DNA of 64,000 nucleotides from Bacteroidota bacterium (GCA_025361565.1 JANYKN010000050.1:17914-81913); one strand, 5' to 3'; positions 3,001 to 30,844 are shown, counted from the stretch's first letter. Program-made: numbers and translations. Notes: generated by a model not told the origin, from the sequence alone.

Positions 3001-3151
3001 AATTAATTGTAATTGTTGTTATTACGATATTGTGGCAACGAATATTTATTTGATATGATAATTGTTTCTTCCTCTTCTTGCGATATCTACCATATACAAC
3101 CATAGTAAAGCAGACAATGACGATTTTGAATCAATTTAGAAATTTAAAAAT

Positions 3152-3183
3152 AAATTGGTAGTTGACCATGCAACTACCAATTT
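3152..3183 (-). terminator. Perfect 13-bp hairpin (aaattggtagttg / caactaccaattt, 6-nt loop) downstream of the SGBP gene, followed on the minus strand by a T-rich run
   Basis: Read directly from the sequence. It lies 27 nt past the stop at 3210, inside the 209-nt gap before the GH5 gene. Confidence 0.6.
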
Positions 3184-3209
3184 ATCAAATAATTGTCAAC
3201 TTAAATTTA

Positions 3210-5057: not shown

Positions 5058-5167
5058 AATTTAATTATTTTGTTTTTAATGACTTAGTATATTCATTTGT
5101 AATACGAAACACCAAAATAAGAGATTTCTTTTTGAAATGAATATTTAATCATATTAGTTGAATAAAT

Positions 5168-6748: not shown

Positions 6749-6759
6749 TATATCAGAAT

Positions 6760-12596: not shown

Positions 12597-12620
12597 ATAT
12601 AAAGGAATTAAGGTTTCGTT

Positions 12621-14206: not shown

Positions 14207-14218
14207 GTTTATATGAAT

Positions 14219-15607
14219 TTAAAGGTTTTCAATTTGAATTGATTTGGGAGAAATACTTATCCCCACAGTGTCGTCATCATCCCATATATCGTTGGTATCT
14301 ATATAGATGTGTTCATTTCCTTCAATAAGTACAGTAAGGTGATAATGATTTCCTTTGTACAAGATGAAACTAACAACACCACTTAACATACCATCCTCTT
14401 CGTTATCATGCAGTACCACATTCCTAAAATCAACCAGGACTTTTACCTTGGCATCGCTAGTGAAATTTTGTGCATCATCGCATTTGAACGTATTCCCAAG
14501 GAATCGGACATGTAACTTATCAACTATACTTCCCTCGAATGTATTGCAATGCCGTTCTTTTTTCATTACCTGAATATCGAATGGTTTCACCCTTAGTCCA
14601 ACCGTTTTACCTGGCTCAAAACAATGATAATCCTGAATTATAAACTCAAAACCCTCGGAGCTAGTAACCATCATCTCATAATGCACGCCTTTGAATATAC
14701 TTGATGTAACCTGGCCGCTAAACTGAGCTGCATCAGACATTTCGAAAATGTAAATATCTTCAGGACGGATCACAACTTCGACAGGTTCATTAGGCCCGAA
14801 GCCCTTATCCACACATTCAAACTGCTGGCCGGCAAATTCTACAAGCTCGTCTTCAATCATTATTCCGTCAAGGATATTACTTTCGCCAATAAAATCGGCT
14901 ACAAACGAGTTTTTCGGTTCATTATATATTTCTGTTGGTGTGCCAATTTGCTGTATAATTCCCTCGCGCATTACCACAATTCTGTCACTTAAAGTAAGAG
15001 CCTCTTCCTGATCGTGTGTAATATAGACAAAACTGATATTCAATTTTTTGTGCATAGCCTTTATTTCCATTTGCATATCCTTTCGCATTTTATGGTCAAG
15101 GGCAGCCAATGGTTCATCGAGGAGCAAAACTTCAGGTTGGTTAACAATAGCGCGGGCAATGGCTACACGCTGTTGCTGACCACCTGAGAGCGAATCCACA
15201 TCACGTCCTTCGTAATCGGACATGATCACCATTTTCAAAACTTGTTTCACCTTTTTTTTGATTTCATCAACAGGGATCTTTTTTAGTTTAAGCCCGAAAG
15301 CTATATTTTCAAAGACGTTAAGGTGAGGAAATAGCGCATATTTTTGAAAAACAGTATTTACTGGTCGAAGATGAGGAGGAGTGATTGTCATATCCTGACC
15401 TATAATGGTTATTTTTCCGTCAGAAGCCTTTAGGAATCCAGCAATTAGTCTCATCAACGTTGTTTTTCCACAACCTGAAGGACCAAGTATGGTTACAAAC
15501 TCTCCTTTACCGATAGAAAGATTAATATCATGAAGAACTGTCTTGTCTCCAAATGTATGGGATAAGTGCTCAACAGTGATGATATTGTTATCATTATTAT
15601 GTTGCAT
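14219..15607 (-). CDS. potA: Spermidine/putrescine ABC transporter ATPase with an extended C-terminal TOBE-like region
   Basis: Walker A is GPSGCGKTT, the signature is [14 protein letters not shown] and Walker B is LLLDEPL. The C-terminal region looks like two TOBE-like beta modules. Confidence 0.9.
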
Positions 15608-15861: not shown

Positions 15862-15897
15862 AAAAAAAACCGAAAATCAAAGACTTTCGGTTTTTTA
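15862..15897 (-). terminator. Rho-independent terminator ending the 15.9-30 kb minus-strand cluster
   Basis: The stem is aaccgaaa / tttcggtt with a 9-nt loop, flanked by an A-run and a T-run. It lies 30 nt past the stop at 15927. Confidence 0.7.
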
Positions 15898-15926
15898 GTT
15901 TAAAGGTTAAAGCAAATTTTATGATA

Positions 15927-18900
15927 TTAAACCTTAATTCCCATAACCAACACGTCATCAATCTGTGCCAAATCGCGTTTCCACTTCATAAAAGCTTGTT
16001 CCAGTATTATTTTTTGTTCGATCATTGATTTGCCTTGAGCGGACATTAAAAGTTCCTTAAATCGCTTCGATTTGAATTTTTCACCGGTTTCTCCACCAAA
16101 CTGATCAACATATCCATCTGAAAATGAGTACAAACTATCTCCATTTTTAAGTTGGAACACATGGTTTGTAAATTCTTTTTCGGCCAAATGGATTCCTATT
16201 GGCTGACGATCGGCTTTTAAATGGATTAATTCATAACGTGCATCTATATCAATGCTCTCGTCTTTAAGGTTTATTTCTTGATTTGGCCTAATGATATATA
16301 GCGGATTGTAAGCGCCTGCATATTGAAGCATCAATGTTTCGCTGTCAATAATTAAAAGTGCTATGTCCATACCATCCTTCTGTTCTCCTTCCTTGCCTTC
16401 CTGATGCAATGATTGTTTTACTTTGCTCCGTAACCGGTTTAGTATCTGTGCTGCACTGTCCATGCTTCTACGAGTTATAATTTCGTTAAGGAACGAACTT
16501 CCCAACATGCTCATAAAAGCACCAGGAACTCCATGTCCGGTGCAATCTGCTGCAACAACTGCCACGTAGTTGTTGATCTTTTTCATCCAGTAAAAATCAC
16601 CACTTACAATATCGCGTGGTTTATAGTATATGAAATGCTCCAGTAAAATATCATCAGCATATTGGGTTGACGGTAGCACTGCTTGCTGTATCCTTTGGGC
16701 ATAGCTGATGCTGTCGAGAATTTCCTTTTTTTGTTTGTAAGCAATATCGCGCTGTTCTTCAATTTTAGTTTTACTGCGTTCAATTTCTTCTGTTCGTTCT
16801 TTCACAATTTCTTCCAAGCGATCTTTCTCTTTTTCAGAAGCACGCATACTCCATATAAAATAGAACCTGATGAGCACAATCAATATCAAAACATAGATTA
16901 ATATAGCCCACCATTGCCTGAATATAGGGGTGAGGACTTTAAAACTAAATTCAGCCTTATCTGCAATTTTTCCAAACTCGTTGCGGGCTTCAACCATAAA
17001 CCGATATTCACCGTCCGGCAGATTGGTATAGTCCTTTTTTGTCAATAAATCCCAACTTGATGTATCTTTATCAAATCCTTTCAGGAAAAAGCGATATTCA
17101 ACTTTTCCCATAGCTGGAAAAACCGGAGCGCTAAACTCAAATTGAAGGGAATTGTTTGAATATCCAATTCTTGTTGTTTTTTCATTCAGATTAATCAATG
17201 AATCTTTTGATATAATTCTTATTTTACTAATCTGTGTCTTAAAATTAGCATCATAATCGTATAAATCTTTATAGTTCGAAATAAGCAAACCATCTTTTCC
17301 ACCAGCCCACAGTTGCGATTTTTTATCGTTTAACCAAGTGGTTTGAACCGAGAATGAAGCTACAGGCAAGAATTGAGTTGGGTTTAGTGCAACCCGGTTG
17401 TCTCCAGTATTTAAGAACGATAGGTTCTTTTGTTCACCATTGGTTACTACATATGAATTTTCTGATATTTCAAATAAATCGTGAATCCATAATTGCTGTG
17501 ATGCAGTATCATTAGGTAAAAGCGAGAAAGGTATTATTTTATTTGAAGCTTTATTTATCGAATAAAGCCCTTTTTCGGAACTCAGGAATATTTCACCTGC
17601 TTTTTTATTTAAATGGAGATAGGTGAAATTAATTTCGGCCTCAATTTCAACTAGTTGTTTGTTTTTGGATTTGTAAATATATATTTTTCCCGGACTAACT
17701 TCCATGTATAAATCTCCTTCTTTGTCTTCGACAAGGTTGAGCACATCACCAGTCATTCCTGGAATGGTTTGGATTGCTTTGATATTATTGTTATCTTTTT
17801 GATAAACAACTACTTTTCGGTTTTGACCAACATAAATTAAATTTGTATGAACCGATGAAGGTGCCATACAAAAAGTGAACCCTGTATTTTCTATAGCCTG
17901 CACATTTAACCCTTTTACTTTGAATATTCCACGCGAAGTTGCTGCAAGAATGTAATCATTGATTTTAAGTAGGGATAAGCAAGCTCCTTCAATTTTATTT
18001 ATTTTATTAATTGATGACGCTTCTAAATAAAAAAGGCCTTGATCTGTTGCAAAATATAGCGAATTTGCAAGTTCTTCAATATCTTGCACTTTACCAAACA
18101 GACCACTTGTTTTATTGTCTATATAGCTTAGTGGCCAGTTTATTTCTGCTTTTGAAATGCCATTATTGGTTGTTATCCAGAGTGATGCGCCTTTATCTAA
18201 AAATAATGAATTAATGCTTTCGTCCTGCAGTTTCGATGACCTATCAATTACCTTCAGTATTTTTCCAGATTCATTGATTAATACTATTCCTCCGGTTAAA
18301 GTACCAATTGCATAGTTTGATTTGCTTGATTTTATACCACAGGATAAGCCGTACTTTTTAATATATTCATTGATAGGGGATTCAAATACAATGATTTCAT
18401 TATTTTTTAGTAAAAAAATGCCTTGATTTTCAGAACCTATCATTATTTCATTTTTGTTACCTGTAGGTATCATAAAAAGTATATTCAGAAAAGGCATTTC
18501 TGTTTTGAGTACTACTTTTTTAAATTTCTTATCATGATAAATGCATAATCCGGATGCATTTGACCGATTATTTTTGGAATCGAAAAGGATAAAGATTTGT
18601 TTGTTTACCCGGAATGCTGAAAGCGCCTGATTATCCAAAGTAATTTTTTCGGTTTTTGTTCCATCATAACAAAACATCGTTTTATCGGAGAAAAAGTAGG
18701 TATAGTTATCTATACATAAAACCTTATAGATGAGTCCTATAGTTGTTTTGTCTTCTGTTGAATCAACCAGCGAAAAAAAATGAGTTAACCCTTTTTTGTC
18801 TTTTTCAAGATATCCAAAATCGTATAGTCCACCTGCAAAAACCTGTCCTTTGGCGTTCATATTCATGGATAGAATGCGCATTCCGCTGGAAGATGGTATT

Positions 18901-19136
18901 TTTGTCCACTTTGTTCCGTCGTATTCCAGAATTCCGGAAAAGTTGGCAAAATACATAATCCCATTTAAATCCTGTACCATTTCAAAGCTTTTTTCATGGG
19001 CATTGTATTCTTCAGGAGTATAATTCCTGATGAATGGAAGGCCGCCAGTTTTATCAAAATTTTGGGATAATGCAGGCATAGCCAATATGGTAAGGAATAT
19101 TAAATAAATTAATCGATATCTTATTTTCCTGCTCAT
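15927..19136 (-). CDS. Sensor protein phosphatase with a periplasmic two-component-regulator-propeller region, a Y_Y_Y domain, one TM helix, a coiled coil and a PP2C/SpoIIE phosphatase domain
   Basis: Signal peptide MSRKIRYRLIYLIFLTILAMPALSQ. It has a propeller-type repeat region. The Y_Y_Y-like segment is VEYRFFLKGFDKDTSSW...LPDGEYRFMVEARN. The TM helix WWAILIYVLILIVLIRFYFIW is at about aa 742-762. PP2C motifs are SGDFYW, DCTGHGVPGA and SDGYVDQFG. Confidence 0.85.
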   Translation of the reverse strand: MSRKIRYRLIYLIFLTILAMPALSQNFDKTGGLPFIRNYTPEEYNAHEKSFEMVQDLNGIMYFANFSGILEYDGTKWTKIPSSSGMRILSMNMNAKGQVFAGGLYDFGYLEKDKKGLTHFFSLVDSTEDKTTIGLIYKVLCIDNYTYFFSDKTMFCYDGTKTEKITLDNQALSAFRVNKQIFILFDSKNNRSNASGLCIYHDKKFKKVVLKTEMPFLNILFMIPTGNKNEIMIGSENQGIFLLKNNEIIVFESPINEYIKKYGLSCGIKSSKSNYAIGTLTGGIVLINESGKILKVIDRSSKLQDESINSLFLDKGASLWITTNNGISKAEINWPLSYIDNKTSGLFGKVQDIEELANSLYFATDQGLFYLEASSINKINKIEGACLSLLKINDYILAATSRGIFKVKGLNVQAIENTGFTFCMAPSSVHTNLIYVGQNRKVVVYQKDNNNIKAIQTIPGMTGDVLNLVEDKEGDLYMEVSPGKIYIYKSKNKQLVEIEAEINFTYLHLNKKAGEIFLSSEKGLYSINKASNKIIPFSLLPNDTASQQLWIHDLFEISENSYVVTNGEQKNLSFLNTGDNRVALNPTQFLPVASFSVQTTWLNDKKSQLWAGGKDGLLISNYKDLYDYDANFKTQISKIRIISKDSLINLNEKTTRIGYSNNSLQFEFSAPVFPAMGKVEYRFFLKGFDKDTSSWDLLTKKDYTNLPDGEYRFMVEARNEFGKIADKAEFSFKVLTPIFRQWWAILIYVLILIVLIRFYFIWSMRASEKEKDRLEEIVKERTEEIERSKTKIEEQRDIAYKQKKEILDSISYAQRIQQAVLPSTQYADDILLEHFIYYKPRDIVSGDFYWMKKINNYVAVVAADCTGHGVPGAFMSMLGSSFLNEIITRRSMDSAAQILNRLRSKVKQSLHQEGKEGEQKDGMDIALLIIDSETLMLQYAGAYNPLYIIRPNQEINLKDESIDIDARYELIHLKADRQPIGIHLAEKEFTNHVFQLKNGDSLYSFSDGYVDQFGGETGEKFKSKRFKELLMSAQGKSMIEQKIILEQAFMKWKRDLAQIDDVLVMGIKV

Positions 19137-19237
19137 TCTTTGTTTTTATCTTTTTTTAAAACTATTCACTACTCAAGAGTTGAAATATTGAGAAACCAAT
19201 TTCCAATTTCTAATTTTAGTCAATCCATGTAGATTCT

Positions 19238-22200
19238 TTATATAATATCATTTTCTATGCCACTCAATGTCAATTCTTTTTGTTCTGATATTTGATTATT
19301 TTTATTTTCCCACAATGCATTTATAATATCCTGAGCAAAAAGCTTATTATTAACCAACAGATTATTAATCAGATATATATTGATTTGCATAAGAGTTGCT
19401 TCTCCATTCACTGAAATATAGGTATTAAATAGCTCTTCAGGTTTAATGAATGGACAAAAAATATCTCCTGCATTTATTTTATTTCCGTTTTTAACTTCAA
19501 CTAATTCCCCTTCAGCCAGGATAATAAATTCATTAAAACGATCTGCAAATGTAACGGAAGCACCTTTTTCCAAAATTACTTCAATTGCCTTTGTTGATAA
19601 TTCAATGATTTGTTCCTCAATTACATGTGTAAATATATTTAGGTTTTTTAGTTTCTTTAATTTATCAAAGATTAAACTCTTACTTCCGTTGTCATAAGCG
19701 TTTATTTCGTTTGCAAAATCTTTTAATCCGGGTGCTTTTGTAAAATTTTTATTCACTTCTTTTTCAAAGAGATCCTTATTCTTTTTAAACAAACAAAAGG
19801 TTGCAAGTTGTCTCATCATTGGGTGTGGATGCACTATATTCCCAATCAGAATAGGAGTTATTTGCTCATCTTCAAATGTTGAAAGTATTTGAATTGCAAT
19901 GGTTTTTATATAAAGACCGGTTACCAGATATTCTGTATTTAGGATATCGATCAATTGCTCAACAGTATTTAATTTTTCTGATGGGAAATAATTCAGGTAT
20001 TTATTGATTAATTCATTATCCTGGTCACTTTCTAAGAGTGGTAATAACAATGGTTTATGAAATTCGGAAAAAATAATATCGGCAATTTCAAGAGCAAATC
20101 CTTTGGCATCTTTGTCATTGCTTTCAAGATTATCTGAGATTAGTTTAATTGCGTGAGGATCATACAAAACCGATAAAAGGGAAAATATTTTTCTCTTTTT
20201 TTCCAATTTTTCAAGTTCAAGGGCAATCAATATATTGTTGGATGTGAGGGATTCGCTTAAATTGATTATAGCAGAAGCAATATATACATGATTTTTTATC
20301 TCATTTTCTATTTTTTCCCAAACAATATTGCTTTCATTCCTGTTTGACATATATTTTAGAACACCTAATGACTTGATAATTTGCTCACTTACTAAGTTAT
20401 TGTGGTGTCTGATATTTCGTTTTAAAAATTCGATTGCTTTTTCGCCTCCAATTTTTTCAGCCAATTCAATAATTTTTATTTGAAATCCAATATCATATTC
20501 TGTTTTCTGGAAATCATGATCCAATTCTGTCAAAATGGCTTCGCCAATGTTGATTATCGCAGCCGAAACTGTATTGTTGAAAACAGGGTTCTGAAATAAA
20601 GTAACCAAATGATAAAATAAGTCGGTTTCTTTCATTCGTCCAGCTGTAATAATGGCTTCGCATTTAACTTCAAAGTTATCGTCGTGAAGAAGCCTAATCA
20701 ATGGCTTTTCAATTTTGTAAATCGAATAATTCGATAAATTCCGTGTAGCTATAATTCGATCAGTAGGATTTTCTGATTTTGAAAGTTCAATAACATCGTT
20801 GAATTTCAATGTTTTGTTCAAATTCAAAATTCGTACAATTTCATCATTTTGAGCTATGATTTTATCAGATTCGTAAGGGAAAATTAATCGGCAAAGCTTT
20901 ATTAGCGAAGGAAGTTGCGTGTGATTACCTTTTGCAATATATTCATTTAATGTAAATAACAAAGGGTGTAAATCAGTGATTCCAAGTGCCTCTCTTTTAT
21001 TCGATAACATCATTTGTAATTCATTTCGGTACTCTTTGTAGATTTCAACTGCACTTTTAGTCCAAAAAATAATGACTATCAATAAAAAAGCAGAGAAATA
21101 AACCAATGAAAATCCAGGAATTTTAGCAAATAGGAAAAGTAAAATACCAGCCGCAATGCTTGCATATGCTTTAGGTCCACTTTCTACTTTATTCTGAAAC
21201 GATATTCGTTCATCCGGAGGTAGTGGTTGAAATAAAACTTGAGTTGCCGGATCGTGAAACGAAGTCCTGACAGCCCTTGTAAATAATCTGCCCAGAGCAA
21301 CAAATGAAAAAAATAAAGAGAAAGCACCATAAATTAGCCCAAATATAGTGGCCATAGTAACACTAAATACCATAACAAGTGGAAAAACAAGTAAACCAAA
21401 TTTCATCCCATATTTTGCCATTAACCTACCCGAAATAAAGGATTTGAGTATAAATTCAACAATGGAACTAATCCCGAAGAATATACCAACAAATGCAGTA
21501 AGAGCCTCTTTGTCTGGATATTCAATCTTTGCCTGGGCCTGAAAAATAAAATCAATAAAAAACTGAACAAAAATGGGGACAAAGGCAATTACGAAGAATA
21601 ATTTATAATACCGGTTTTGTAAAAATGATGTTTTTTTCTGAGCTTGTCCATTAAACGATTTCTTTGTTTTTTTTGTGGGATCTGCCAACTTTTCATTGTA
21701 CTTTTTTACAATCAAAATCATAATAAGAAAACCAATCAACAAGGAAATGCCTGAAATTAGAAGTAAATCTTCAGTGCTGATTAGTTTCAATAAAAAAGGC
21801 ACAGAGAAAAAAGCAATAATACTTGCAACAACCTCGCCACCAGATATAAGGCCAAAAACCCTTTTGCCTTGTCGTAAAGAAAATAAACGACCCGCCATTC
21901 CCCAAAAAGTAACCGCATGAATATATGCAAAAACACGAATCCATGCATATATTATAAAAATGATTATCAACGGTTTAGAACCAATGAAAAAGATTATAAA
22001 AACAATAATCGAAATCAGGAGAAATCCAATTCCTCCTGTTAAACTTTTGGTAAAATCATATTTTTTTTGAAGTGTCGAAAAGATTTGTCCAACCAGCCAT
22101 ACTATTACCCCTGAAGCAATAAATGCAATGGAAAGCATATCGCGTTCAAAAATATTCAGAAATAGGGCAGTACTGCTGGTAACAAAAAATGCCAGTGAAG

Positions 22201-22297
22201 CTCCTGCAAAAAAGGAATAAACAACTGGTAAAAATACCAGCAACCCTTCACCTTTTTGTATGTTTAAAGCATTAAATATGAGGCTTTTTGTTTTCAA
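19238..22297 (-). CDS. Fusion protein with an N-terminal ~12-TM MFS/NTT(TLC)-like transporter, a central HEAT/armadillo-like repeat region and a C-terminal degenerate cyclic-nucleotide-binding-like domain
   Basis: The first ~430 aa are strongly hydrophobic with many TM segments. The middle ~400 aa is a helical repeat region. The C-terminal ~135 aa has a CNB-like beta-roll pattern (FIILAEGELVEVKNG...AGDIFCPF...ISVNGEATLMQI) but lacks the usual FGE...R[ST]A cassette. Confidence 0.7.
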   Translation of the reverse strand: MKTKSLIFNALNIQKGEGLLVFLPVVYSFFAGASLAFFVTSSTALFLNIFERDMLSIAFIASGVIVWLVGQIFSTLQKKYDFTKSLTGGIGFLLISIIVFIIFFIGSKPLIIIFIIYAWIRVFAYIHAVTFWGMAGRLFSLRQGKRVFGLISGGEVVASIIAFFSVPFLLKLISTEDLLLISGISLLIGFLIMILIVKKYNEKLADPTKKTKKSFNGQAQKKTSFLQNRYYKLFFVIAFVPIFVQFFIDFIFQAQAKIEYPDKEALTAFVGIFFGISSIVEFILKSFISGRLMAKYGMKFGLLVFPLVMVFSVTMATIFGLIYGAFSLFFSFVALGRLFTRAVRTSFHDPATQVLFQPLPPDERISFQNKVESGPKAYASIAAGILLFLFAKIPGFSLVYFSAFLLIVIIFWTKSAVEIYKEYRNELQMMLSNKREALGITDLHPLLFTLNEYIAKGNHTQLPSLIKLCRLIFPYESDKIIAQNDEIVRILNLNKTLKFNDVIELSKSENPTDRIIATRNLSNYSIYKIEKPLIRLLHDDNFEVKCEAIITAGRMKETDLFYHLVTLFQNPVFNNTVSAAIINIGEAILTELDHDFQKTEYDIGFQIKIIELAEKIGGEKAIEFLKRNIRHHNNLVSEQIIKSLGVLKYMSNRNESNIVWEKIENEIKNHVYIASAIINLSESLTSNNILIALELEKLEKKRKIFSLLSVLYDPHAIKLISDNLESNDKDAKGFALEIADIIFSEFHKPLLLPLLESDQDNELINKYLNYFPSEKLNTVEQLIDILNTEYLVTGLYIKTIAIQILSTFEDEQITPILIGNIVHPHPMMRQLATFCLFKKNKDLFEKEVNKNFTKAPGLKDFANEINAYDNGSKSLIFDKLKKLKNLNIFTHVIEEQIIELSTKAIEVILEKGASVTFADRFNEFIILAEGELVEVKNGNKINAGDIFCPFIKPEELFNTYISVNGEATLMQINIYLINNLLVNNKLFAQDIINALWENKNNQISEQKELTLSGIENDII

Positions 22298-22309
22298 TTT
22301 TGAATATTA

Positions 22310-22969
22310 TTAATCATCAATTGTTATTGGTTTGGATCGATCTCTAACCATAAATTTATAACCTAGTTTGATATAAGTCATAAAAAGTGGTTCGTGAAAA
22401 ATATCTTTAGTTATCGCAAATTGTATGCTTATACCACTTTTATCTATCATCTCAATGCCAGGACCAATGAACCAATATCCTTTATCAAATGCTTTTTCAA
22501 TTGTCCATTTATCGTAGCTTAAAACTCCTAAATATGTCATTTTTGTTACTTCATACTTTACATATTGGATAAAGTACATATGATTTTCAGATTGTTTGTT
22601 TAAGCCAAAAAAAAATTGTTCCTGAAAATTAATTAATAGTTTATGATTCATCACATCAAAATTAAAGTCGAGTCTTGGCCCTGTCCAGAATCCACCTGAT
22701 TGATCGTATTTTGAGTAATCAAAAAATTTAAATTTCCAAAAGTTTATTCCAACCATAAAATCAACCCTGGCCAGACTTCCGCTAGGAACGTATTTTGCAG
22801 GAGTAAAAATGTGATCATCAGGCCTTAAACGGAACTCCCACGGTGAATTTTCTATATTCATCCTGATTTCCAGGGCCATCTTAGTCCACATATCAACTGG
22901 AACTTGCGCTTGGATTTTTATCCCACAACAAATAAAAACTAATGTTATTATCTTTAAAAGACGTTGCAT
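22310..22969 (-). CDS. Secreted beta-rich hypothetical protein, possibly a small outer-membrane barrel
   Basis: Signal peptide MQRLLKIITLVFICCGIKIQAQ. It has an alternating aromatic/hydrophilic pattern. Its ATG (22969) directly abuts the stop codon (22972-22970) of the upstream gene. Confidence 0.6.
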   Translation of the reverse strand: MQRLLKIITLVFICCGIKIQAQVPVDMWTKMALEIRMNIENSPWEFRLRPDDHIFTPAKYVPSGSLARVDFMVGINFWKFKFFDYSKYDQSGGFWTGPRLDFNFDVMNHKLLINFQEQFFFGLNKQSENHMYFIQYVKYEVTKMTYLGVLSYDKWTIEKAFDKGYWFIGPGIEMIDKSGISIQFAITKDIFHEPLFMTYIKLGYKFMVRDRSKPITIDD

Positions 22970-24196
22970 TTATTTATTATTTTTTGAGATCCGCTCAAAT
23001 ATTTCAAGTAATTCATTTTCAGGAAAAACAGAACGGTTTAATTCATAGGCTTTTGTTTTTACAAAATCAAGAATTTCGATTATTTGATTTTCATTGAATT
23101 CATATCCTTTCAATTGAGCTACTTCTTTAATTACCCGGTTACTAGCCAGTTGAGTGACCAAGATTGTTTTTTGAATACCTAAAATTTTTTCAGGATCAAA
23201 CGGTTGAAAACTTTTGGTATCAACAAAAGGAGTTCCAGTTGAAATTGAATTGACGCCTGTTCCCACAATCGGATCTGTAACTTTTAAGTCAACACCAGTA
23301 TATTTACTTGCTAGTTGTGCTATTTTATGAAGCATTTTTAAATCCGGGGGTGTTAAAAAAAGATCCTTGCCTTCAATTCCAAATCGTTTCATCATTTTAT
23401 TGCATTCATAAACCAAATGAAAACAGAGTAATTCAGTTTGCACCAACCCATTTCGTTCTGCTAATCCAAGCCATGAGCTGGCTGCCAGATTTATTCCCTT
23501 ACGAATAGATTCGAGATTATTGGCCAAAGCAAAACCTAAATCATTATGAAAATGAACTCCATAGAGTTGATCTTTTTCAGAATGAAACTTTAGTTTTTCA
23601 ATGTAGCTTGCAACCTCAGTGGGATAAAGCTTTCCTTGTGTGTCGCCGAGATGAGTTATGGCAATTCCTTGTTCTTTAAGTAAGGCAGCTGCCTCTGCAA
23701 TATATTCGGGTTCAGTTTCAAACGAAGCAGCCAGTTGAACATCAACTGGGATTCCATTTGCATGGTCTACTGCAAATTTGGCAATATCCAACCCTTGCAA
23801 TAATACATCTTTTTGACTTTTGTGTAGCATTAAATTACACATCCGTTCCGATATGGGCAACACGTAAGCTATTCTTGCATATTTTGCATTCTTAACTGAT
23901 GCCAGACTATCCAAAATTTCATTTTTTGAGCTACGGCAATTTACTGCCAGATAACAATTATCAACTTGTTCTGCCAAAATTTTGATTGCTCTTTCTTCTT
24001 CCTTTCCTATTGAAATAAAACCTGCTGCAAATACCAAATGATCCGGGCCATTTAGCCCAAATAAACTTCCATGTTTTTTTGCAATATCAACTCTTTGGTT
24101 ACCACTTAGGATTGTTTTTGCCTGAGCGCCATCCCGGGCAATTTCTTCCCAAAATACAAAACGATTATTTTTTATTGATTCAACTATTCTATCCAT
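22970..24196 (-). CDS. DRE-TIM metallolyase superfamily protein (HMGL-like / isopropylmalate-homocitrate synthase-like), divergent
   Basis: The N-terminal motif is FWEEIARDGAQA (compare DTTLRDGEQ). The metal-binding HxH is VHFHNDLGFALAN, followed by GLAERNGL (compare GERAGNA). There is no signal peptide. Confidence 0.75.
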   Translation of the reverse strand: MDRIVESIKNNRFVFWEEIARDGAQAKTILSGNQRVDIAKKHGSLFGLNGPDHLVFAAGFISIGKEEERAIKILAEQVDNCYLAVNCRSSKNEILDSLASVKNAKYARIAYVLPISERMCNLMLHKSQKDVLLQGLDIAKFAVDHANGIPVDVQLAASFETEPEYIAEAAALLKEQGIAITHLGDTQGKLYPTEVASYIEKLKFHSEKDQLYGVHFHNDLGFALANNLESIRKGINLAASSWLGLAERNGLVQTELLCFHLVYECNKMMKRFGIEGKDLFLTPPDLKMLHKIAQLASKYTGVDLKVTDPIVGTGVNSISTGTPFVDTKSFQPFDPEKILGIQKTILVTQLASNRVIKEVAQLKGYEFNENQIIEILDFVKTKAYELNRSVFPENELLEIFERISKNNK

Positions 24197-24224
24197 TTCA
24201 ACACCATTTCAATTTGTAAATGTA

Positions 24225-26843
24225 TTAGAATTCATATATTAGACTTAGGTAAATATTCCTTCCATTTTGTTTCAAACTTGAGGCTAGCTCTGGAGTTACC
24301 TGATCCAATCCAGGCGAAAAATATTCAGTGTTTAAAATATTAAAAATTGAAAATTGTACCGTTAATCCTGTTTTCTTTGGAGAATAAGACAATGCTCCAT
24401 CCAGGATAAAATAAGGGGCAAATTTATCTTTGTTTGCAGGCACTGTGGTATTTTCGCCCGTTATTCGTTCGCTCACAAAGTTTGTCCGCAGGTTGATGTT
24501 TAAAACTTCTTTAAACAGATAATTAGCTCCAAAATTTATATGATGATTGGCTATATCGCTTATTCTTAATTTTTTATAGGGTTCCAGATTCGCATCCAAT
24601 AACGGATTGCCTTGGCTGTCAGTTGGTTTAATTGTATATGGAATGGTATAAGTATAATTCAGATAACAAGTTAAATCATTCCATTTCAGATTTGATGAAG
24701 CGTTAATTCCATAAACCTCAGCATTGCCTTTAGCTTGATTTTGATTGGTTAATGTACCGTCAGGTTTAGCGGTCTGGACTTCTTGAATGATATTGCTGTA
24801 CTGCGAAAAATAGGCAGCTGCCTCAACTGAAATCAGTTCACCGAAATCTTTGCCAATTCCAAATTCATAATTTTTCACTTTCTCGGGCTGCAATGTTGGG
24901 TTTGCAAGTTCCCTTTTACCTGCAGCGGTTGAATATTTTTCGCGGTTGGTTGCGTCTTTAAAAGCCTCGGCATAAATAGCTTTTAATGTATAGCCTTTTA
25001 ATGTGTATACAAATGCAATCCGCGGGTTAAATGCATTTCCATATCCTTCGTTTTCCCTTACTCTATTGTTGTCATACCTTAAACCAAGCGTTATTTTTAA
25101 ATGTTTGATAAGTGAAATCCCAGTTTGGGCGTAAAAACCAATATCTCTTGAAAAAAAATTATTACCGCCAGGAATTAAAGTTTGAGGAGAGCCGGATTGT
25201 TCCGCATCATTTTTACTCGATGAGGTATAGTCACCTTGAATGTTACTGAATCTCAGCTCAAAACCTGCCACAGCATCAATCCATTTAACGGGAGAAAAAA
25301 GAACCTTCATCTCTTCGCGCATTTGGTTTGACTTTTGGAAAAGATAAAGGCTATCAAAAGTGGGCACTTTTCCGTTGATTAAATTATCCAAATTGAAATT
25401 TCCTGTACTATAGTTTTTTCTATACCTGACAATACAGTTATCTTTATCAAAAAAATGATCTTTATAACTCAACAAATTACTGATATTTAAATTGTTCGAT
25501 ATTTTTTTCTCATATTTTGCATAAACATAAGTATGTATTGGCCTCCAGGATTGGCCTTGGTCATAACCCATAAATTGTGAATCGTTATATTGTGCACCTG
25601 GTCCTTCTGCTTTGTTCCAGTATGAATATCCAATCAAAAAATCGTATATTTTTAATTTACTTTCAATAAGAAAAGCCTGGGTATGATCCGAAAATGAAAC
25701 ATTGTTATAAACTACATTATCATATGCAAGCGCCTGATTAACACCTGCATCCGAAAGAATGATATCATTGTTAATATCTAAATTGTAATATGTTCCGGAG
25801 CTTGGATGGCTAGCTAAAAAATTGGTGACCTTGGTATCATCTGTAATGTCTAGCTTACTGTGATAATTTGTCAATCGATCTGCAGTCATCTCCCGAGGTT
25901 CATAACTGTGGCCAGGATAGCCTGATAAATTCTGTTCATCGGATAAAAAAAATCTTCCTGTCAACGAAAATGAAATGTTATTGTTCTTAGTTCGGGCAGC
26001 TAAACTGATATCTGCAAATTTAGTATTGTACGATCCATAAGAAACCCGTGCGTTAATTCCTGCTAATTTTCCTGGATTTATCATTTCCCATGGTTCCTTG
26101 GTTATGATATTGATTACACCCAAAAATGCATTGGAACCATACATAGTGGATGCCGGTCCATACACAATTTCTATGTTTTTGATGTTGCTTAAAGCATATT
26201 GTCGCGAAAGGTATACATTGCTCGACCACAAATCGTTATCTTCAATTCCATCAATTAAAAACAGCGTTCTGTTTGTATTGATAGAACGGTATCCACGCTG
26301 ATAAATATGCGAATATAAATTTCCGTTCGAACGGGATATATCAAATCCGGGCAAATCATGCAAAATGGCTTCTAAATCGAGATAACCTCTTGTTTTAATA
26401 TCTTTAGCAGTCAATAACATAACTGTTGCCGGCGCCTCTTTTATATTTTCGGATTTTTTAGAAACAGATGTAATTTGTTGTGCGCTATTTCTATCTTTTA
26501 TTGATTGAAGGATTTCGATAAATCGAGGTGGATCTGTAAGATAATCTGGTTGAAATTGCTGATCGATTTGCAGAAGTTTTGAAATTAATTGATTGGCCAA
26601 ACTGTCGTTATCTTGCTCAAGATATGATTTAGCCATAATTCTATAAGCTTGTACTTTTTGTTTATCATCGAATCCGTTAGCTACACATTTTTGAACCAAA
26701 TCAATCGCTTCGTCAAAATTACCTGATCTGTATTTTTCAGATGCATCATCAATTACCGACCAATCGCATTTGCTTTGTGCATAACCTGAAATGCTTATAA
26801 TCAAGCCAATCAAAAGAAATATATGTCTAATAATTTGATTCAT
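24225..26843 (-). CDS. TonB-dependent outer-membrane receptor with a ~110-aa TPR-like N-terminal extension
   Basis: A signal peptide ending YAQ is followed by a helical TPR-like segment (GNFDEAIDLVQKCV...AYRIMAKSYLEQDN...). The plug then starts at EAPATVMLLTAKDIKTRG and is followed by a long barrel. The C-terminal sequence is YLSLIYEF. Confidence 0.85.
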   Translation of the reverse strand: MNQIIRHIFLLIGLIISISGYAQSKCDWSVIDDASEKYRSGNFDEAIDLVQKCVANGFDDKQKVQAYRIMAKSYLEQDNDSLANQLISKLLQIDQQFQPDYLTDPPRFIEILQSIKDRNSAQQITSVSKKSENIKEAPATVMLLTAKDIKTRGYLDLEAILHDLPGFDISRSNGNLYSHIYQRGYRSINTNRTLFLIDGIEDNDLWSSNVYLSRQYALSNIKNIEIVYGPASTMYGSNAFLGVINIITKEPWEMINPGKLAGINARVSYGSYNTKFADISLAARTKNNNISFSLTGRFFLSDEQNLSGYPGHSYEPREMTADRLTNYHSKLDITDDTKVTNFLASHPSSGTYYNLDINNDIILSDAGVNQALAYDNVVYNNVSFSDHTQAFLIESKLKIYDFLIGYSYWNKAEGPGAQYNDSQFMGYDQGQSWRPIHTYVYAKYEKKISNNLNISNLLSYKDHFFDKDNCIVRYRKNYSTGNFNLDNLINGKVPTFDSLYLFQKSNQMREEMKVLFSPVKWIDAVAGFELRFSNIQGDYTSSSKNDAEQSGSPQTLIPGGNNFFSRDIGFYAQTGISLIKHLKITLGLRYDNNRVRENEGYGNAFNPRIAFVYTLKGYTLKAIYAEAFKDATNREKYSTAAGKRELANPTLQPEKVKNYEFGIGKDFGELISVEAAAYFSQYSNIIQEVQTAKPDGTLTNQNQAKGNAEVYGINASSNLKWNDLTCYLNYTYTIPYTIKPTDSQGNPLLDANLEPYKKLRISDIANHHINFGANYLFKEVLNINLRTNFVSERITGENTTVPANKDKFAPYFILDGALSYSPKKTGLTVQFSIFNILNTEYFSPGLDQVTPELASSLKQNGRNIYLSLIYEF

Positions 26844-26865
26844 GGTTCAGTCGTTTATTTCATTT

Positions 26866-29800
26866 TTAATCAACAGGTATTTTTTTGGTGTATACTATGT
26901 CTTTTCCAACATAGTTCAACCAGTTTTTATAGCTCATATTTTCTGAAATGTTATCACGAATGATTGATTTCAAATCAGTAATATTGATTTTAGAAATTAG
27001 GATACTTTTATCAGCGCTTCCTGAAAGTACCAATGAGTTATCTTTATTCAGCACAAGGCAATATACCCAATTTGAATGCCCTCCAATAATGGCTGGTTCT
27101 GCTTCTAAATTATCATAATCCCATATTTTTACATTACCATCATAGCTGCACGTAAGCATCCGGTTTTTTTGATTGTCAAAATGAATATCAGTTACTCCTG
27201 AGGCATGTGTGTATACCGATTTTATTGAATTGCCGTTTTTTATTTCAATTTTGCCCGATGCAAAACCAATAATTAAATCATTTTTTTTGTTCCAGCAAAG
27301 CGACAATATTTTTCCTTCTTTACTTTGATAAGTATCTTCAAGTGTGTGGGTGTTTGAATTAAAAATCCTTACAACTCCTTGTTCCGAAGCTACTGCAAAT
27401 TTGCTTTCATCAGAATTTGCAGCCCCGGCTATAAATTTTTCACTGGCATTAAATACAACTTGCGCTCCGGTTTGAAAATCTTTGAAATTCCAGGATCTGA
27501 TAAAACCATCGCTGCTGATGGATATTAATTGAGATGAATTCTTTAGTGCAAGCAGTTTATTTACTGAATAAGTATGTCCGGCTAAAATCATCAGGTTGTT
27601 ATTTTCGATATTCCAAACCATTATTGCCCCCTGATTAGTTCCTGCAACAACAAATTTATCATCAGGGCTGAAAGTGACTGAACGGAAATTATATTTCTTG
27701 TCAGACTTCGGGGTTTTCATATTCACAGGGTGTTGTGGATCTGAAAAGCTGAATTTCTTAACAGTTCCATCATCGCTGCACGATGCAAAATATTTTCCAC
27801 TCTCCGATACTGCAATATCTCGAACTGCATCGGTATTTTGTCCACGGATAATAACTGAAGAATTGCTAACTCCCGAAAGTGCTGCATATATATCCGGATC
27901 ATACATGTTTCCCTGATATTTAACATTAAAATACCATGCTTGATAGGCCATAATTAAAGGCAACTCTGCCTGCTCTTCAGAGAGGTTTTTCGATTTCAGG
28001 TTATCCTGATAAACTTTAATAGCCTGAACTGCCAATGATTTTGCAATTGCCAGTTTTCTTAATGTATCTGTGCGAGCTTCTGAAAATTCTGCCCTAACTT
28101 TCTGTTTTTCAGCTTTGTCTTTTTGAAAAAGAGCGCTGTCTCGTAATTTTTCAGCTTCTATTTGTAGAAATTTTGCTTTGTCCCTCGATTTTTCAGCTTC
28201 ACCTTTCGATACTAAAGCAAGACCCTTTTGGATAACCGCTTCTTTTTTCTGCTCCAGTGCGTAAAGTTTTTGTTCTTCCGCCATTCTCCGCTCTTCATCA
28301 GCTATCATTTGTTGCTGTTCTGCAATTTTTTTATGCGAGATTGCTTCTTTTTTCTGGTCTTCCGCTGTTTTGCTTTCTTCAACGGCTATTTTTTCACTGT
28401 CAAGGGCTTTCTTTTCACTTGTTTCAGCTTTTATTTTTAAGTTTAAAGCAACTACTAAAAACGAAATAGAAATGAGCGAAGCCACTCCCATAAAAATTGC
28501 AATATATTTTGCGCGTTTTAAATTTCGCTTTTGTCTCTCTTCTTTTGCTGCAATAGCTTTTTCGTGTTCTTTCCTGCTATATTCAAGATAAGTCATTGTC
28601 CGTTCAAATGCCGGATCGTACCTTATTGCCCAGGTTTCATTTGGATTATTGTCTTGTTTCCATTTTAAGGCTAGTTGTAAATCAGGATTTACAAGCAAAC
28701 CAGTTTTTCCTTCCTGATAAAGTTCTGCTGATTTGGAAAGTCGTAAGTAGAGCTGTGCTGATTCTGTTTCTTCGCTAACCCATGAAACTAATCTTTTCCA
28801 AACACGCATTATGCTTTCGTGCGAAATATCAATCACAGTTGTTGGCTTTATTCGGGTAGGTAATAAGGGCATTAAGAAACTATTGCCCTCAGCTCTGAAT
28901 TCTTCAATAACTGCAACAACATCTTCTTCATGAGCTCCTGTAATTTTACATATTTCGTCCAAACGTGCCGGTCTACGTGTGCCTCTATTGTCCTCTCCTA
29001 AGTGAGTAAGGGATTTAAAGAGTTTTTCGGTAACTTTTTTTAATTCAAGGTTTTGAAGCGAGCCATAAATTTGTTCAGCATGAACCGATAGGGCATCTGT
29101 AATGGTACCAATTGCCAAGTAATGTTCTACATCTACAGCCTGATCTGCTTCTGCATTGATCATCCAATAATCCCATGTACGCATTAATGCATGTTGCAAT
29201 ACAGGCAATCCAACATCATATGTTTGGATATGATGTCGTAGTAGGGCGCTCAATTCTTCCGATATTTTTGCTCCGGCAAGTATCGCCGGGCCTTTAACAG
29301 CTTCTTCTTTTTCCTCCAGCGTCATTTTAGGAATCAGATAATGCCCCTCGTTAATCATTTGAGGTAGTGCTTCAAATTCTGTGCAATCGCTTAAAAAATC
29401 AGAACGCATTGATAATACGATATATACAGGATGTGTTCTCTGTTTTGATAAACCGATTAAGAAATTTACAAATTGTTCAGATTCCTCTTTTGAATTCGAT
29501 TGATACTCATCGTCGCGATATCTAAAAACTTCTTCGAATTGATCTACATAGACCAACAAGTTGTTATGAAAATTAATTTTTTTGAAATGTTCGGTTAAGT
29601 TTACTGCATCAGTTTGAATTATTTTTTCGAGATCTTTATATGAACCTGTCAGATTATTTTCGATACCATATTCGCAAAAAGTATCAATTAGGGCATCTGC
29701 CATATTTCCAATAGGTTGATTTCCTGGTCTAAAAACAATAGATGACCAGTTTTTTGATATTTTTTTCAATTCAGGTATTAAACCAGCTTTGACCAAGGAT

Positions 29801-29994
29801 GATTTTCCGCTTCCTGACGCCCCAGTAATTACTATAAAATGTGACTTTGTAAGGACTTTTATTAATTCGTAAGTTTGTTGCTCCCTTCCAAAGAAAAGAC
29901 TGCCTTCGCCAGTATCAAAACTTCTGATACCGGGGTAAGGATTTTTTATATATTCTTTAGCAGTAGTTTGAATCATAGCTGATTCTATTTTCAA
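26866..29994 (-). CDS. STAND-type P-loop NTPase (nSTAND/WD40-NTPase-like) with a winged-helix region, a single TM helix, a long charged helix and a 7-blade WD40 propeller
   Basis: The family-typical N-terminus is NPYPGIRSFDTGEGSLFFGRE. Walker A is GASGSGKSS and Walker B is LLVYVDQFEE. The TM helix YIAIFMGVASLISISFLVVALNL is at about aa 497-518. A K/E/A-rich helix spans about aa 520-665. Seven WD40-like blades are present, for example ASCSDDGTVKKFSF, GHTYSVN...SISSDGFIRSWNF and TCSYDGNVKIWDY. Confidence 0.85.
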   Translation of the reverse strand: MKIESAMIQTTAKEYIKNPYPGIRSFDTGEGSLFFGREQQTYELIKVLTKSHFIVITGASGSGKSSLVKAGLIPELKKISKNWSSIVFRPGNQPIGNMADALIDTFCEYGIENNLTGSYKDLEKIIQTDAVNLTEHFKKINFHNNLLVYVDQFEEVFRYRDDEYQSNSKEESEQFVNFLIGLSKQRTHPVYIVLSMRSDFLSDCTEFEALPQMINEGHYLIPKMTLEEKEEAVKGPAILAGAKISEELSALLRHHIQTYDVGLPVLQHALMRTWDYWMINAEADQAVDVEHYLAIGTITDALSVHAEQIYGSLQNLELKKVTEKLFKSLTHLGEDNRGTRRPARLDEICKITGAHEEDVVAVIEEFRAEGNSFLMPLLPTRIKPTTVIDISHESIMRVWKRLVSWVSEETESAQLYLRLSKSAELYQEGKTGLLVNPDLQLALKWKQDNNPNETWAIRYDPAFERTMTYLEYSRKEHEKAIAAKEERQKRNLKRAKYIAIFMGVASLISISFLVVALNLKIKAETSEKKALDSEKIAVEESKTAEDQKKEAISHKKIAEQQQMIADEERRMAEEQKLYALEQKKEAVIQKGLALVSKGEAEKSRDKAKFLQIEAEKLRDSALFQKDKAEKQKVRAEFSEARTDTLRKLAIAKSLAVQAIKVYQDNLKSKNLSEEQAELPLIMAYQAWYFNVKYQGNMYDPDIYAALSGVSNSSVIIRGQNTDAVRDIAVSESGKYFASCSDDGTVKKFSFSDPQHPVNMKTPKSDKKYNFRSVTFSPDDKFVVAGTNQGAIMVWNIENNNLMILAGHTYSVNKLLALKNSSQLISISSDGFIRSWNFKDFQTGAQVVFNASEKFIAGAANSDESKFAVASEQGVVRIFNSNTHTLEDTYQSKEGKILSLCWNKKNDLIIGFASGKIEIKNGNSIKSVYTHASGVTDIHFDNQKNRMLTCSYDGNVKIWDYDNLEAEPAIIGGHSNWVYCLVLNKDNSLVLSGSADKSILISKINITDLKSIIRDNISENMSYKNWLNYVGKDIVYTKKIPVD

Positions 29995-30439
29995 TTAAGA
30001 AATTATAAATTTGCGATTTGATAGATTTCAAGTACCATTATATATTTTGAGATACTAATTCAAAACCATTAAAATTCTAACACTTGAAAATTATACAGAA
30101 ACAATTGACTAAGAATTTTAGGCAGAATTATTAATTATAATATACTTTGTGTTAAGAATTCTTTATTCAAAAAGGATACCAAAAATTTTCATAGACCAAG
30201 AATAGATTGATCAGTTGCGCAGGAGAATAAATGTCTTTATTGATTAATCCTGATTTTAATTTAAATCAAACATTTACTTCTAAAAAGGATTTAAGTTTTT
30301 AATAAGAATGCCCTTAATTTTTAGATATAAAAAAATTGAAAAACAGAAATAGAGATTGCATAATTTTTAATATAAAGCATCAACTTGATTACAAAAAAGA
30401 TACTTTTAGTGAAATGTAAAGAAATAATCTTTAAAATAA

Positions 30440-30447
30440 TACTTTTG
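30440..30447 (+). promoter_or_regulatory. Candidate -7 promoter element TActTTTG, only 4 nt upstream of the ATG at 30452
   Basis: Read directly from the sequence. The spacing implies a leaderless or near-leaderless mRNA. Confidence 0.35.
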
Positions 30448-30451
30448 AAAC

Positions 30452-30844
30452 ATGAATGAACTTAATATTACAACCCCAGCCTTATTGTTTTCGGCAGTTT
30501 CGTTAATTCTTTTGGCTTATACGAACCGGTTTTTAGGATATGCTCAAATAATCCGGAATTTATACACAGAATATAAACAGGATAAAGACGCTATCTTGAT
30601 TGATCAAATTAAAAATCTTCGCAAACGCCTCTATCTTATTAGGGCTATGCAAACTTTTGGTGTTTTTAGCCTGTTCTTGAGCATGGCATCCATGCTATTT
30701 ATATATCTGGGGTTCAATTTGGCTGCTGCTTTTGCTTTTGGCGGAAGCTTGGTTTGCATGATAGGATCCCTTGCTATTTCATTATGGGAAATTCAAATTT
30801 CGGTACTTGCATTAGAATTGCATTTAAAAAACATGGAAGATTAA
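30452..30844 (+). CDS. Small integral membrane protein (DUF2721-like)
   Basis: It is 130 aa with three hydrophobic helices. The N-terminus TPALLFSAVSLILLAYTNRF resembles DUF2721 proteins, recalled from memory. Confidence 0.6.
   Translation: MNELNITTPALLFSAVSLILLAYTNRFLGYAQIIRNLYTEYKQDKDAILIDQIKNLRKRLYLIRAMQTFGVFSLFLSMASMLFIYLGFNLAAAFAFGGSLVCMIGSLAISLWEIQISVLALELHLKNMED

Follow-up and report, generated by a model that had tools for sequence, protein, structure and literature searches.

The known routes by which events at the outer membrane of diderm bacteria reach the cytoplasm are TonB/FecR-type signalling, Rcs and the sigma-E cascade, and STAND proteins are the class behind NLR-type immunity. 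Fusions of an NTT-type carrier to HEAT repeats, in some cases with a domain for binding cyclic nucleotides (cNBD) after them, form a widespread but uncharacterised family, for which a link to STAND proteins or TonB receptors is not reported (Major, Embley & Williams 2017, PMC5381601). Here we describe a six-gene module in which a STAND NTPase, a TonB-dependent receptor and an NTT-like HEAT carrier are encoded together with an enzyme, a small barrel and a phosphatase. The module lies on the minus strand of a 64,000-nucleotide stretch of DNA from a Bacteroidota bacterium (GCA_025361565.1, JANYKN010000050.1:17914-81913), which is referred to as the window, and its genes are lettered A to F in order of transcription, A at the high-coordinate end and F at the low-coordinate end. 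No described system of this composition was found in Pfam, NCBIfam, PADLOC or the literature on the module, nSTAND1 and NTT structure, as had been anticipated by an earlier interpretation made from the DNA alone (hereafter the sequence-only reading), which knew of no pathway built in this way. We propose, with a probability of about 0.4, that the six genes form an operon-like trans-envelope signalling and transport device, and that the subtype found in the window runs a loop in which a small molecule is made, released and recaptured. All of the evidence is computational; anatomy and conservation are observed, and from them a mechanism is inferred.

The six open reading frames (ORFs) span 15927-29994 and are separated by gaps of 22, 28, 0, 12 and 101 nt, so that the ORF listing of the window reproduces exactly the six co-directional genes and the spacing given by the sequence-only reading. 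All positions given below for the six genes and their domains are on the minus strand. Gene A (26866..29994, a 1042-aa ORF from TTG) encodes an nSTAND1 NTPase with a single transmembrane segment, a coiled-coil stalk and a 7-bladed WD40 propeller, and gene B (24225..26843) encodes a TonB-dependent receptor of 872 aa with an N-terminal extension. Gene C (22970..24196) encodes a divergent DRE-TIM (HMGL-like) metallo-enzyme, which has a barrel and an accessory domain and lacks a regulatory domain. Its stop abuts the start of gene D (22310..22969), which encodes a predicted 12-strand outer-membrane beta-barrel of 219 aa with a signal peptide. Gene E (19238..22297) encodes an NTT-like (TLC/MFS) transporter with HEAT repeats and a C-terminal domain of unconfirmed type, and gene F (15927..19136) a periplasmic propeller/Y_Y_Y sensor joined by a transmembrane segment to a cytoplasmic PP2C phosphatase. 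An intrinsic terminator stands 3' of F on the same strand (15862..15897), where the sequence-only reading had placed it. It consists of a 15-bp hairpin followed by a U-run, AAAAAACCGAAAGUC...GAUUUUCGGUUUUUUUU, with a folding energy of -15.6 kcal/mol and a z-score of -4.8, and none of 200 shuffled sequences folds as well. The GC content of the module resembles that of the remainder of the window, with no compositional anomaly.

That these genes form a unit is seen from their synteny. One genome per species was scanned with a profile of C, which gave 39 loci (cited below by handles such as L003), and the six proteins and the flanks were then compared by tblastn. The order and orientation A-B-C-D-E-F are kept, as far as the contig reaches, in every Bacteroidota or Chlorobiota locus in which C shares 46-72% identity with that of the window; all told, with C at 46-82% identity, about 13 loci are complete (for example L003, L004, L007-L012, L019 and L023) and 8 are truncated by the contig, such as L013, which runs to the contig end. 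A Dyadobacter locus (L016) has the module without D, and further copies occur on long metagenome contigs (L045, L047, L048). The genes flanking the module are not conserved across loci, and conserved order within unconserved flanks indicates a self-contained module, in an arrangement that is far beyond chance because it recurs across genomes. The neighbourhood check that the sequence-only reading had suggested thus came out in its favour, with all six genes collinear in all sufficiently long related loci. Median gaps in the other loci are 20, 28, 4, 44 and 20 nt. E and F often overlap elsewhere, and in most other loci they either overlap or lie 3-46 nt apart; the wider spacing of 101 nt before F is local to the window.

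The ORF of A begins with TTG, and its probable start is an ATG at 29976, which gives a protein of 1036 aa and agrees with the public gene call on the same contig. Its NTPase domain, placed in the cytoplasm, is nSTAND1 (residues 19-429, 28708..29940; Pfam PF20703, E 1.7e-87, 295 bits against a cutoff of 27.1), and in its Walker A (GxSGxGKSS) and Walker B (DQFEE) motifs residues G58/K64/S65 and D151-Q152-F153-E154 are invariant or nearly so. A single transmembrane helix follows (residues 498-516, 28447..28503, hydropathy peak 2.54) and occurs at the same place in 16 of 16 orthologues. Beyond it, on the periplasmic side, come a heptad coiled-coil stalk (residues 517 to ~667, 27994..28446) and a 7-bladed WD40 propeller (residues ~714-1002, 26989..27855; Pfam WD40 matches). 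The STAND NTPase-transmembrane-WD40 architecture that had been read from the DNA is therefore borne out by the nSTAND1 and WD40 matches and the one transmembrane helix. In an AlphaFold2 model with a mean predicted local distance difference test score (pLDDT) of 83, the NTPase and the 7-bladed propeller are confident, the latter with 28 strands at a pLDDT of ~90, and a helix passes through the membrane (457-517) before a continuous helix of 122 residues (540-661, in the 1036-aa numbering).

The stalk follows a regular pattern. Among 34 A homologues, alanine is at least 90% conserved at every seventh residue in 15 of 17 positions between 517 and 629, and the period-3.5 signal is 22 times the median. 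The segment from the transmembrane helix to the WD40 propeller (517-700) is rich in E, K, Q, R, A and L and measures 184 aa in 13 of 16 orthologues, with a range of 177-185. In addition, the stalk comes in discrete lengths that go with the partner class: the window type has 182-185 aa, A-B-E-F loci that lack C have 175-176 aa, and 16 A proteins of a type found with a small barrel have 158-159 aa, despite their identity of only ~23% to the window protein. About 150 helical residues correspond to some 20 nm, the scale of the periplasm, and the stalk of A would thus span this compartment. The WD40 propeller is the least conserved part of A among orthologues, at 39% compared with 56% for the NTPase. 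The sequence-only reading had taken A for a periplasmic propeller sensor; the propeller stands, while a free sensor is disfavoured, and a head carried on a stalk and docking on the N-terminal domain of B is preferred.

Gene B matches the Pfam models for the plug (PF07715, E 6.6e-17) and the TonB-dependent receptor barrel (PF00593, E 4e-35), and a TonB-box-like strand, V[TS]SVSKK (VTSVSKK in the window), precedes the plug in all orthologues read. The receptor falls below every NCBIfam subfamily cutoff, and a search for its substrate class in NCBIfam and the PDB showed no more than a generic likeness of the plug to CirA, PhuR and BtuB, in each case below cutoff. Ahead of the plug lies an N-terminal extension (NTE; residues 23-125, 26469..26777) with the pattern C..C-x-NGF..DPxxF, and the first 100 mature residues contain two invariant cysteines and the motifs NGF and DPxxF. 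The plug and barrel of the TPR-extended receptor named by the sequence-only reading are plain, and the TPR-like character of its extension is moderately supported, by an alignment with a consensus TPR in hhalign (76%, E 2e-5). The extension is also homologous to the N-terminal domain that is carried by small OMP_b-brl_2 barrels whose genes come after A-like genes (hhalign 99.6%, E 1.3e-24).

The distribution of this domain is tied to A. A Hidden Markov Model of the NTE matches 46 of the ~1200 ORFs across all loci. For 45 of these the start lies within -55 to +193 nt of the end of a same-strand A-like gene, and the other one is a tandem second copy. Among genes with sequence downstream, an NTE partner is present for 27 of the 34 A-like genes of 980-1120 aa and for 0 of the 30 of other lengths. 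Since the same periplasmic domain is found on two unrelated barrel types, always beside A, physical coupling to A seems the best explanation, and we propose that the NTE of B serves as the docking site for A.

To place A in a wider family, metagenome contigs were scanned with its N-terminal 520 residues, which returned at least 551 relatives, and 80 loci were analysed. A transmembrane segment follows the NTPase in 72 of the 75 A-like proteins longer than 700 aa. In a first architecture, seen at 48 of the 80 loci, a protein of ~500 aa with TIR_2 and DUF4062 domains is encoded immediately upstream of an A-like gene whose C-terminus varies; such loci fall among L056-L129 (for example L063:5675-7123). 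The pairing of a TIR_2+DUF4062 protein with a transmembrane STAND may represent an unrecognised conflict or signalling pair. A second architecture comprises an E-like gene, an optional PP2C gene, an optional TIR gene, A, a 360-aa OMP_b-brl_2 barrel and a 410-aa unknown protein, and often ends with an Ig/fn3 surface protein of ~2000 aa; it is found at L059, L060, L063, L069-L073, L077, L079, L084, L094 and L129, and the stalk measures 158-159 aa in most of these. The third runs A, B, an optional enzyme, E and F, and its enzyme varies: L051 has a formyltransferase-like gene between B and E, L058 has a GNAT gene after E, and L052 and L103 carry no such gene. At 25 of the 80 metagenome loci, in three architectures, E-like and A-like genes are found within 10 kb of each other. 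Because A and E occur together where C and D are missing, A and E appear to form a conserved scaffold and C and D a cargo specific to the window subtype; C and D are outside the conserved core, and A and E recur alongside other enzymes.

The membrane domain of E has as its best PDB match the ADP,ATP carrier protein 1 (9j3n, E 4e-9) and contains about 10-12 transmembrane segments. By Pfam, HEAT_2 is found in 15 of 15 E orthologues, MFS_1 in 12 and TLC in 1. The cNMP_binding model (PF00027) matches 0 of the 15 at E<=0.1, and the profile of the E C-terminus aligns with E. coli CRP at 2% probability in hhalign, although the strand order looks similar. Hence, of the MFS/NTT-like-HEAT fusion with a cyclic-nucleotide-binding end that had been read from the DNA, the carrier and HEAT parts are retained and the nucleotide-binding part is unconfirmed. 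A C-terminal cyclic-nucleotide-binding domain is present in only part of the NTT-HEAT family.

Gene F carries an N-terminal signal or anchor, a transmembrane segment at residues 743-761 and a PP2C domain at 856-1068. Pfam assigns Y_Y_Y and SpoIIE/PP2C, in line with the propeller-PP2C phosphatase proposed earlier, and the best NCBIfam match is SiaA (E 8e-54, below cutoff). Gene D has no Pfam or NCBIfam match. Its AlphaFold2 model, built with 21 homologues, is a 12-strand beta-barrel with a pLDDT of 88, and its nearest folds in Foldseek are FapF, KdgM and OmpG (TM-score 0.5-0.6). On this model, D is predicted to be a small 12-strand outer-membrane channel, which agrees with the small secreted beta-rich outer-membrane protein of the sequence-only reading. 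A motif, RPDDHIFxPxKY (residues 47-60), is invariant in all 21 D homologues; in the barrel model it falls in a lower-confidence loop/strand part, perhaps as a plug or ligand site. With one transmembrane helix in A, an anchor and a transmembrane segment in F, about 10-12 segments in E and the modelled barrel of D, the proteins are spread over the envelope compartments as had been suggested.

Gene C matches the Pfam HMGL-like model (E 3e-25), and its profile aligns over residues 9-388 with structures of isopropylmalate synthase (IPMS), homocitrate synthase (HCS) and methylthioalkylmalate synthase (MAM) (E ~1e-35). The metal/2-oxoacid site, R21-D22 and H215-x-H217, is invariant in 17 family members. 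In the known synthases an H-x-x-G-x-H motif of accessory subdomain I supplies a histidine that helps to activate acetyl-CoA. When C is aligned with 3rmj, 6ktq and 6e1j, this motif (HESGIHQDG / HKAGVHVAG) falls on 'sisTG----tpf' and both histidines are lost: the H-x-x-G-x-H of IPMS, HCS and MAM is replaced in C by an invariant N..STGTPF with a deletion of 4 residues. The accessory subdomain that holds His379 of the M. tuberculosis enzyme is required for IPMS catalysis (PMC9860122). Moreover, C scores far below the NCBIfam synthase cutoffs, at best 112 bits against 517 (NF002085), and 104 against 463 for the homocitrate synthase model. Because the catalytic-His motif is lost and all NCBIfam synthase scores are far below cutoff, C is not demonstrably an isopropylmalate or homocitrate synthase, and its sequence places it in a distinct DRE-TIM clade. 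Public sources label homologues of C as isopropylmalate or homocitrate synthases. The DRE-TIM/HMGL-like assignment of the sequence-only reading is thus upheld, and its alkylmalate/homocitrate-type synthase is not.

Variants of the module show what else may join it. At L011 and L027 an O-methyltransferase gene (PF00891, E 2e-47) is inserted between D and E. At L045 and L046 C forms a fusion with a class I methyltransferase and F ends in a histidine kinase; at L045, D is absent and a 338-aa P-loop protein precedes the fusion. P-loop proteins of 283-338 aa are encoded directly upstream of C at L041:9114-9968, L043:9048-9899 and L045:6084-7100, that is, in Chloroflexia, in one JGI contig and in the methyltransferase-fusion variant. 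They have a Walker A motif, GLTGxGK[ST]T, and a weak AAA_18 match, and may be kinases acting on the substrate or product of C. The protein upstream of C in variants (X6) was considered as a relative of D and rejected, being P-loop and kinase-like and not a barrel. In Dyadobacter (L016) F has the form of a histidine kinase, with another kinase and a response-regulator-PP2C protein after it, and genes for a STAS protein and an RsbW-like kinase precede A; the same STAS/RsbW-like pair also flanks A at L006 and L023. In the monoderm Chloroflexia the neighbours of C are STAS, an RsbW-like kinase, an 818-aa MFS protein, a solute-binding protein, PhyH, the P-loop protein and a dCache-HAMP-PP2C protein, and this version has no receptor, barrel or STAND.

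In Nocardia, Pseudonocardia and Stellaceae, genes distantly homologous to C (41-44% identity) have those for aconitase-type large and small subunits as neighbours (L021, L022, L024, L025, L026), joined in several cases by an AMP-binding enzyme, a Rieske oxygenase and a protein with DUF3179. The aconitase-type neighbours suggest an alkylmalate-like product in these loci, which look like an uncharacterised 2-oxoacid elongation or specialised-metabolite cluster. In Planctomycetota a C-family gene is followed by one for a Sua5/YciO/YrdC-domain protein of 217-245 aa (L030, L034, L036, L037, L039).

Taken as a device, the module might work as follows. A homo-oligomeric stalk of A would place the WD40 head beneath the outer membrane, where it would hold the N-terminal domain of B, and ligand binding or TonB-driven movement of the plug in B would be relayed to the cytoplasmic NTPase of A. 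The NTPase would then control E, probably through the HEAT domain of the carrier, whose cytoplasmic repeats are the likely contact. F would independently sense a periplasmic ligand and dephosphorylate a STAS protein, feeding a STAS/anti-sigma-kinase partner switch. C would make or convert a small metabolite of the hydroxy- or keto-acid type, which may leave via E and D, in the direction we favour, and be recaptured or sensed via B and F; such a loop could be signal-like or metallophore-like. The D gene abuts or overlaps the C gene. Making, releasing and recapturing are favoured because tailoring enzymes join the cluster in variants, because the outer membrane is crossed by two routes, passive through the barrel D and energised through the receptor B, and because the monoderm Chloroflexia version drops exactly the outer-membrane parts.

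Several points weigh against this proposal. In the AlphaFold2 monomer the stalk has a pLDDT of 40-50 and breaks at 518-539, low values that are expected for a monomer model of a coiled coil. Docking of the WD40 head of A on the NTE of B is argued from gene adjacency and geometry. For a biosynthetic route a single enzyme is little to build on, and this enzyme, C, lacks the histidine motif needed to activate acetyl-CoA in its solved relatives. As for partners of F, tblastn found no STAS or kinase gene in the window. Finally, the 457-nt intergenic region upstream of A (29995..30451, minus strand), in which the sequence-only reading could not name a promoter, has not yielded one here either. TAnnTTTG, sigma70-like sites, shared 8-mers and Fur-box-like repeats were sought upstream of A at 16 loci, and no promoter, Fur box or other regulatory motif was common to them. 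TAnnTTTG is absent from the minus strand both in these 457 nt and in the 101-nt E-F gap, where its absence had already been remarked. A sigma70-like TTGAAA-N18-TATAAT (11 of 12 matching) lies just 5' of the A start at 30031-30002 (minus strand), but matches of this kind are not enriched in the AT-rich region upstream of A. The sequence TATCTTTG is present upstream of A in the orthologous loci L007, L008 and L009.

Among other explanations, the main rival, though rather unlikely, is uptake and conversion. In such a system B, perhaps with D, and E would import a scarce external compound, C or an alternative enzyme would convert it, and A and F would sense and regulate. Wherever they have been characterised, TonB-dependent receptors and NTT-type carriers import (family knowledge; PMC5381601), but for import alone B and D would be redundant as two outer-membrane routes. 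The variable enzyme slot (DRE-TIM, formyltransferase-like or GNAT) resembles substrate-specific processing cassettes, and C without a synthase-type histidine motif could act as a lyase or aldolase, but one enzyme is not a pathway, and catabolic clusters seldom contain O-methyltransferases or a methyltransferase fusion. Neither a periplasmic binding protein nor an extra catabolic gene is conserved with the module. Of the two functions offered by the sequence-only reading, making, exporting and re-importing a compound fits better than its catabolism, given the methyltransferases and the P-loop kinase-like protein of the variants and the two outer-membrane routes, although nothing ties the module to metals.

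It is improbable that the module is an immune guard of the envelope, in which the STAND protein would monitor an outer-membrane barrel exploited by invaders as a phage or bacteriocin receptor and would trigger the NTT-HEAT carrier, the phosphatase and the enzyme as effectors. In its favour, nSTAND1 was defined in conflict systems (PMC8195603), and TonB-dependent receptors are classic receptors of phages and colicins. The TIR_2+DUF4062 gene directly upstream of A-like genes at 48 of 80 loci would suit a guard as well, but the window subtype has no TIR or other recognised effector; Pfam finds no effector domain (TIR, nuclease, protease or the like) in A-F. PADLOC detects no system for the six proteins, with only weak P-loop noise, and none for the TIR-linked relatives of A. 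While the WD40 head, the fastest-evolving part of A, might be expected of an immune sensor, six genes conserved so strictly, in what looks like vertical descent and together with a metabolic enzyme and tailoring methyltransferases, are atypical of defence islands, and the flanks are housekeeping genes or genes of polysaccharide utilization loci (PULs).

A strict carboxylate metallophore, as the sequence-only reading had it in its second proposal, is doubtful to a like degree. C would make a citrate- or homocitrate-like chelator, E would export it and B would re-import the metal complex. C does belong to the LeuA/NifV superfamily, and its actinomycete homologues beside aconitase-type subunits imply an alkylmalate-type product, but C lacks the catalytic histidine of homocitrate synthase, and the formyltransferase-like or GNAT enzymes that replace it in sister subtypes do not suit a carboxylate chelator. 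On the transport side, the best family-level similarity of B is to heme/siderophore receptors, though below cutoffs, whereas E is NTT-like and not of a known siderophore exporter type, and no system for re-import across the inner membrane is conserved. Neither a motif nor a regulator that responds to metals was found, and Pfam finds no domain of nonribosomal peptide synthetases (NRPS) or NRPS-independent siderophore synthetases (NIS) in A-F. Lastly, that six unrelated genes are co-directional by mere chance is scarcely credible, for although no promoter motif was found and 101 nt precede F, the same order in ~20 species-level genomes, at identities as low as 46%, with flanks that are not conserved and E and F close or overlapping in most other loci, refutes chance adjacency as far as the evidence of synteny goes.

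Outside the module, the window carries the genes of an ordinary Bacteroidota chromosome, among them a GH5/SusD/SusC locus, PNPase and malic enzyme. The ordinary PUL at 1513-9942 (minus strand) offers an internal contrast to receptor B: it encodes a GH5 cellulase-family enzyme (1513-3000), a 615-aa protein without Pfam match (3210-5057), SusD (5168-6748) and, with CarboxypepD_reg at its N-terminus, a SusC-type receptor (6760-9942), all on the minus strand. The next genes downstream of the module (11364-15607, minus strand) encode an ABC importer with a solute-binding protein, two BPD_transp_1 permeases and a TOBE_2 ATPase, which is probably unrelated because it is not conserved beside the module in other genomes. 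Upstream of A a divergent gene encodes a 130-aa DUF2721 membrane protein (30452-30844, plus strand), shared only with L003. A MaeB-type malic enzyme fused to a phosphate acetyltransferase-like domain (40717-42999, plus strand) is ordinary.

Should the proposed make-release-recapture device prove right, it would constitute a new outer membrane-to-cytoplasm signalling route in diderms, built on a STAND NTPase. It would give a first functional context to the widespread NTT-HEAT fusion proteins, and a context also to a large family of ~1040-aa proteins known as 'WD40 repeat / hypothetical' and to a distinct DRE-TIM clade now mis-annotated as 2-isopropylmalate synthase. The length-quantised stalk and the strictly co-located docking domain give directly testable predictions. 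Held more tentatively than the device itself is a broader idea, that an unrecognised class of trans-envelope machines may exist in Bacteroidota and their relatives, in which a STAND protein on an alanine-heptad stalk of fixed length, its WD40 head holding the TPR-like domain of an outer-membrane barrel that is a TonB-dependent receptor in the window and a small OMP in sister systems, would couple surface events to NTP switching and to an NTT-HEAT carrier, the window subtype being an autocrine small-molecule loop based on a new DRE-TIM enzyme.

The domain families used are each known; the six-gene module, the ruler-like stalk of the STAND protein, the docking domain on the barrels and the linkage of A to NTT-HEAT carriers were not found described. 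Like B and F, the PULs of Bacteroidetes pair a TonB-dependent receptor with a periplasmic Reg_prop/Y_Y_Y sensor, but the module has no SusD or carbohydrate-active enzymes, and B has no CarboxypepD_reg N-terminus and matches the SusC signature only at E 0.0035, below cutoff. With the LeuA-NifV family C shares the TIM barrel, the R-D and H-x-H metal site, the accessory domain and a homocitrate-synthase-like size. It differs in lacking H-x-x-G-x-H and in a context without leucine or lysine pathway genes. RsbU, SpoIIE and SiaA of the Pseudomonas SiaABCD system are likewise membrane-anchored sensors with PP2C, as is F, and STAS/RsbW-like kinase genes flank orthologous modules; in contrast, the sensor of F is a Bacteroidetes-type double propeller with Y_Y_Y, and no diguanylate cyclase is present. 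E shares with the NTT-HEAT(-cNBD) family an NTT-like membrane domain followed by HEAT repeats, with the cNBD undetected in E orthologues, and the linkage of A-like STANDs to such carriers is new here.

Parallels to the A-B pair come from STAND conflict systems and from TonB-dependent cell-surface signalling. A belongs to the same NTPase clade, PF20703, as the nSTAND1/Avs-type conflict systems, has a C-terminal sensor of WD40 repeats as they do, and has relatives paired with TIR proteins. However, its sensor is split from the NTPase by the membrane and a periplasm-length stalk, it has no N-terminal effector, and its gene stands among those for a receptor, a transporter, an enzyme and a phosphatase. 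In the FecA-FecR-FecI system, as in B, the receptor is extended at its N-terminus by a further periplasmic domain that precedes the TonB box, and, as may be the case for A, a neighbouring single-pass inner-membrane protein could relay receptor occupancy. The parts differ: the domain of B is TPR-like with two cysteines and not STN (no PF07660 match), and the partner is a 1040-aa STAND NTPase with stalk and WD40 and not an anti-sigma factor. No gene for an extracytoplasmic function (ECF) sigma factor lies near the module, whose neighbours are GNAT, DUF2721, TPR and ABC transporter genes, and the docking domain of the module is also carried by small non-TonB barrels. Signalling from B to A would thus be functionally like that of FecA and FecR, and built from unrelated parts.

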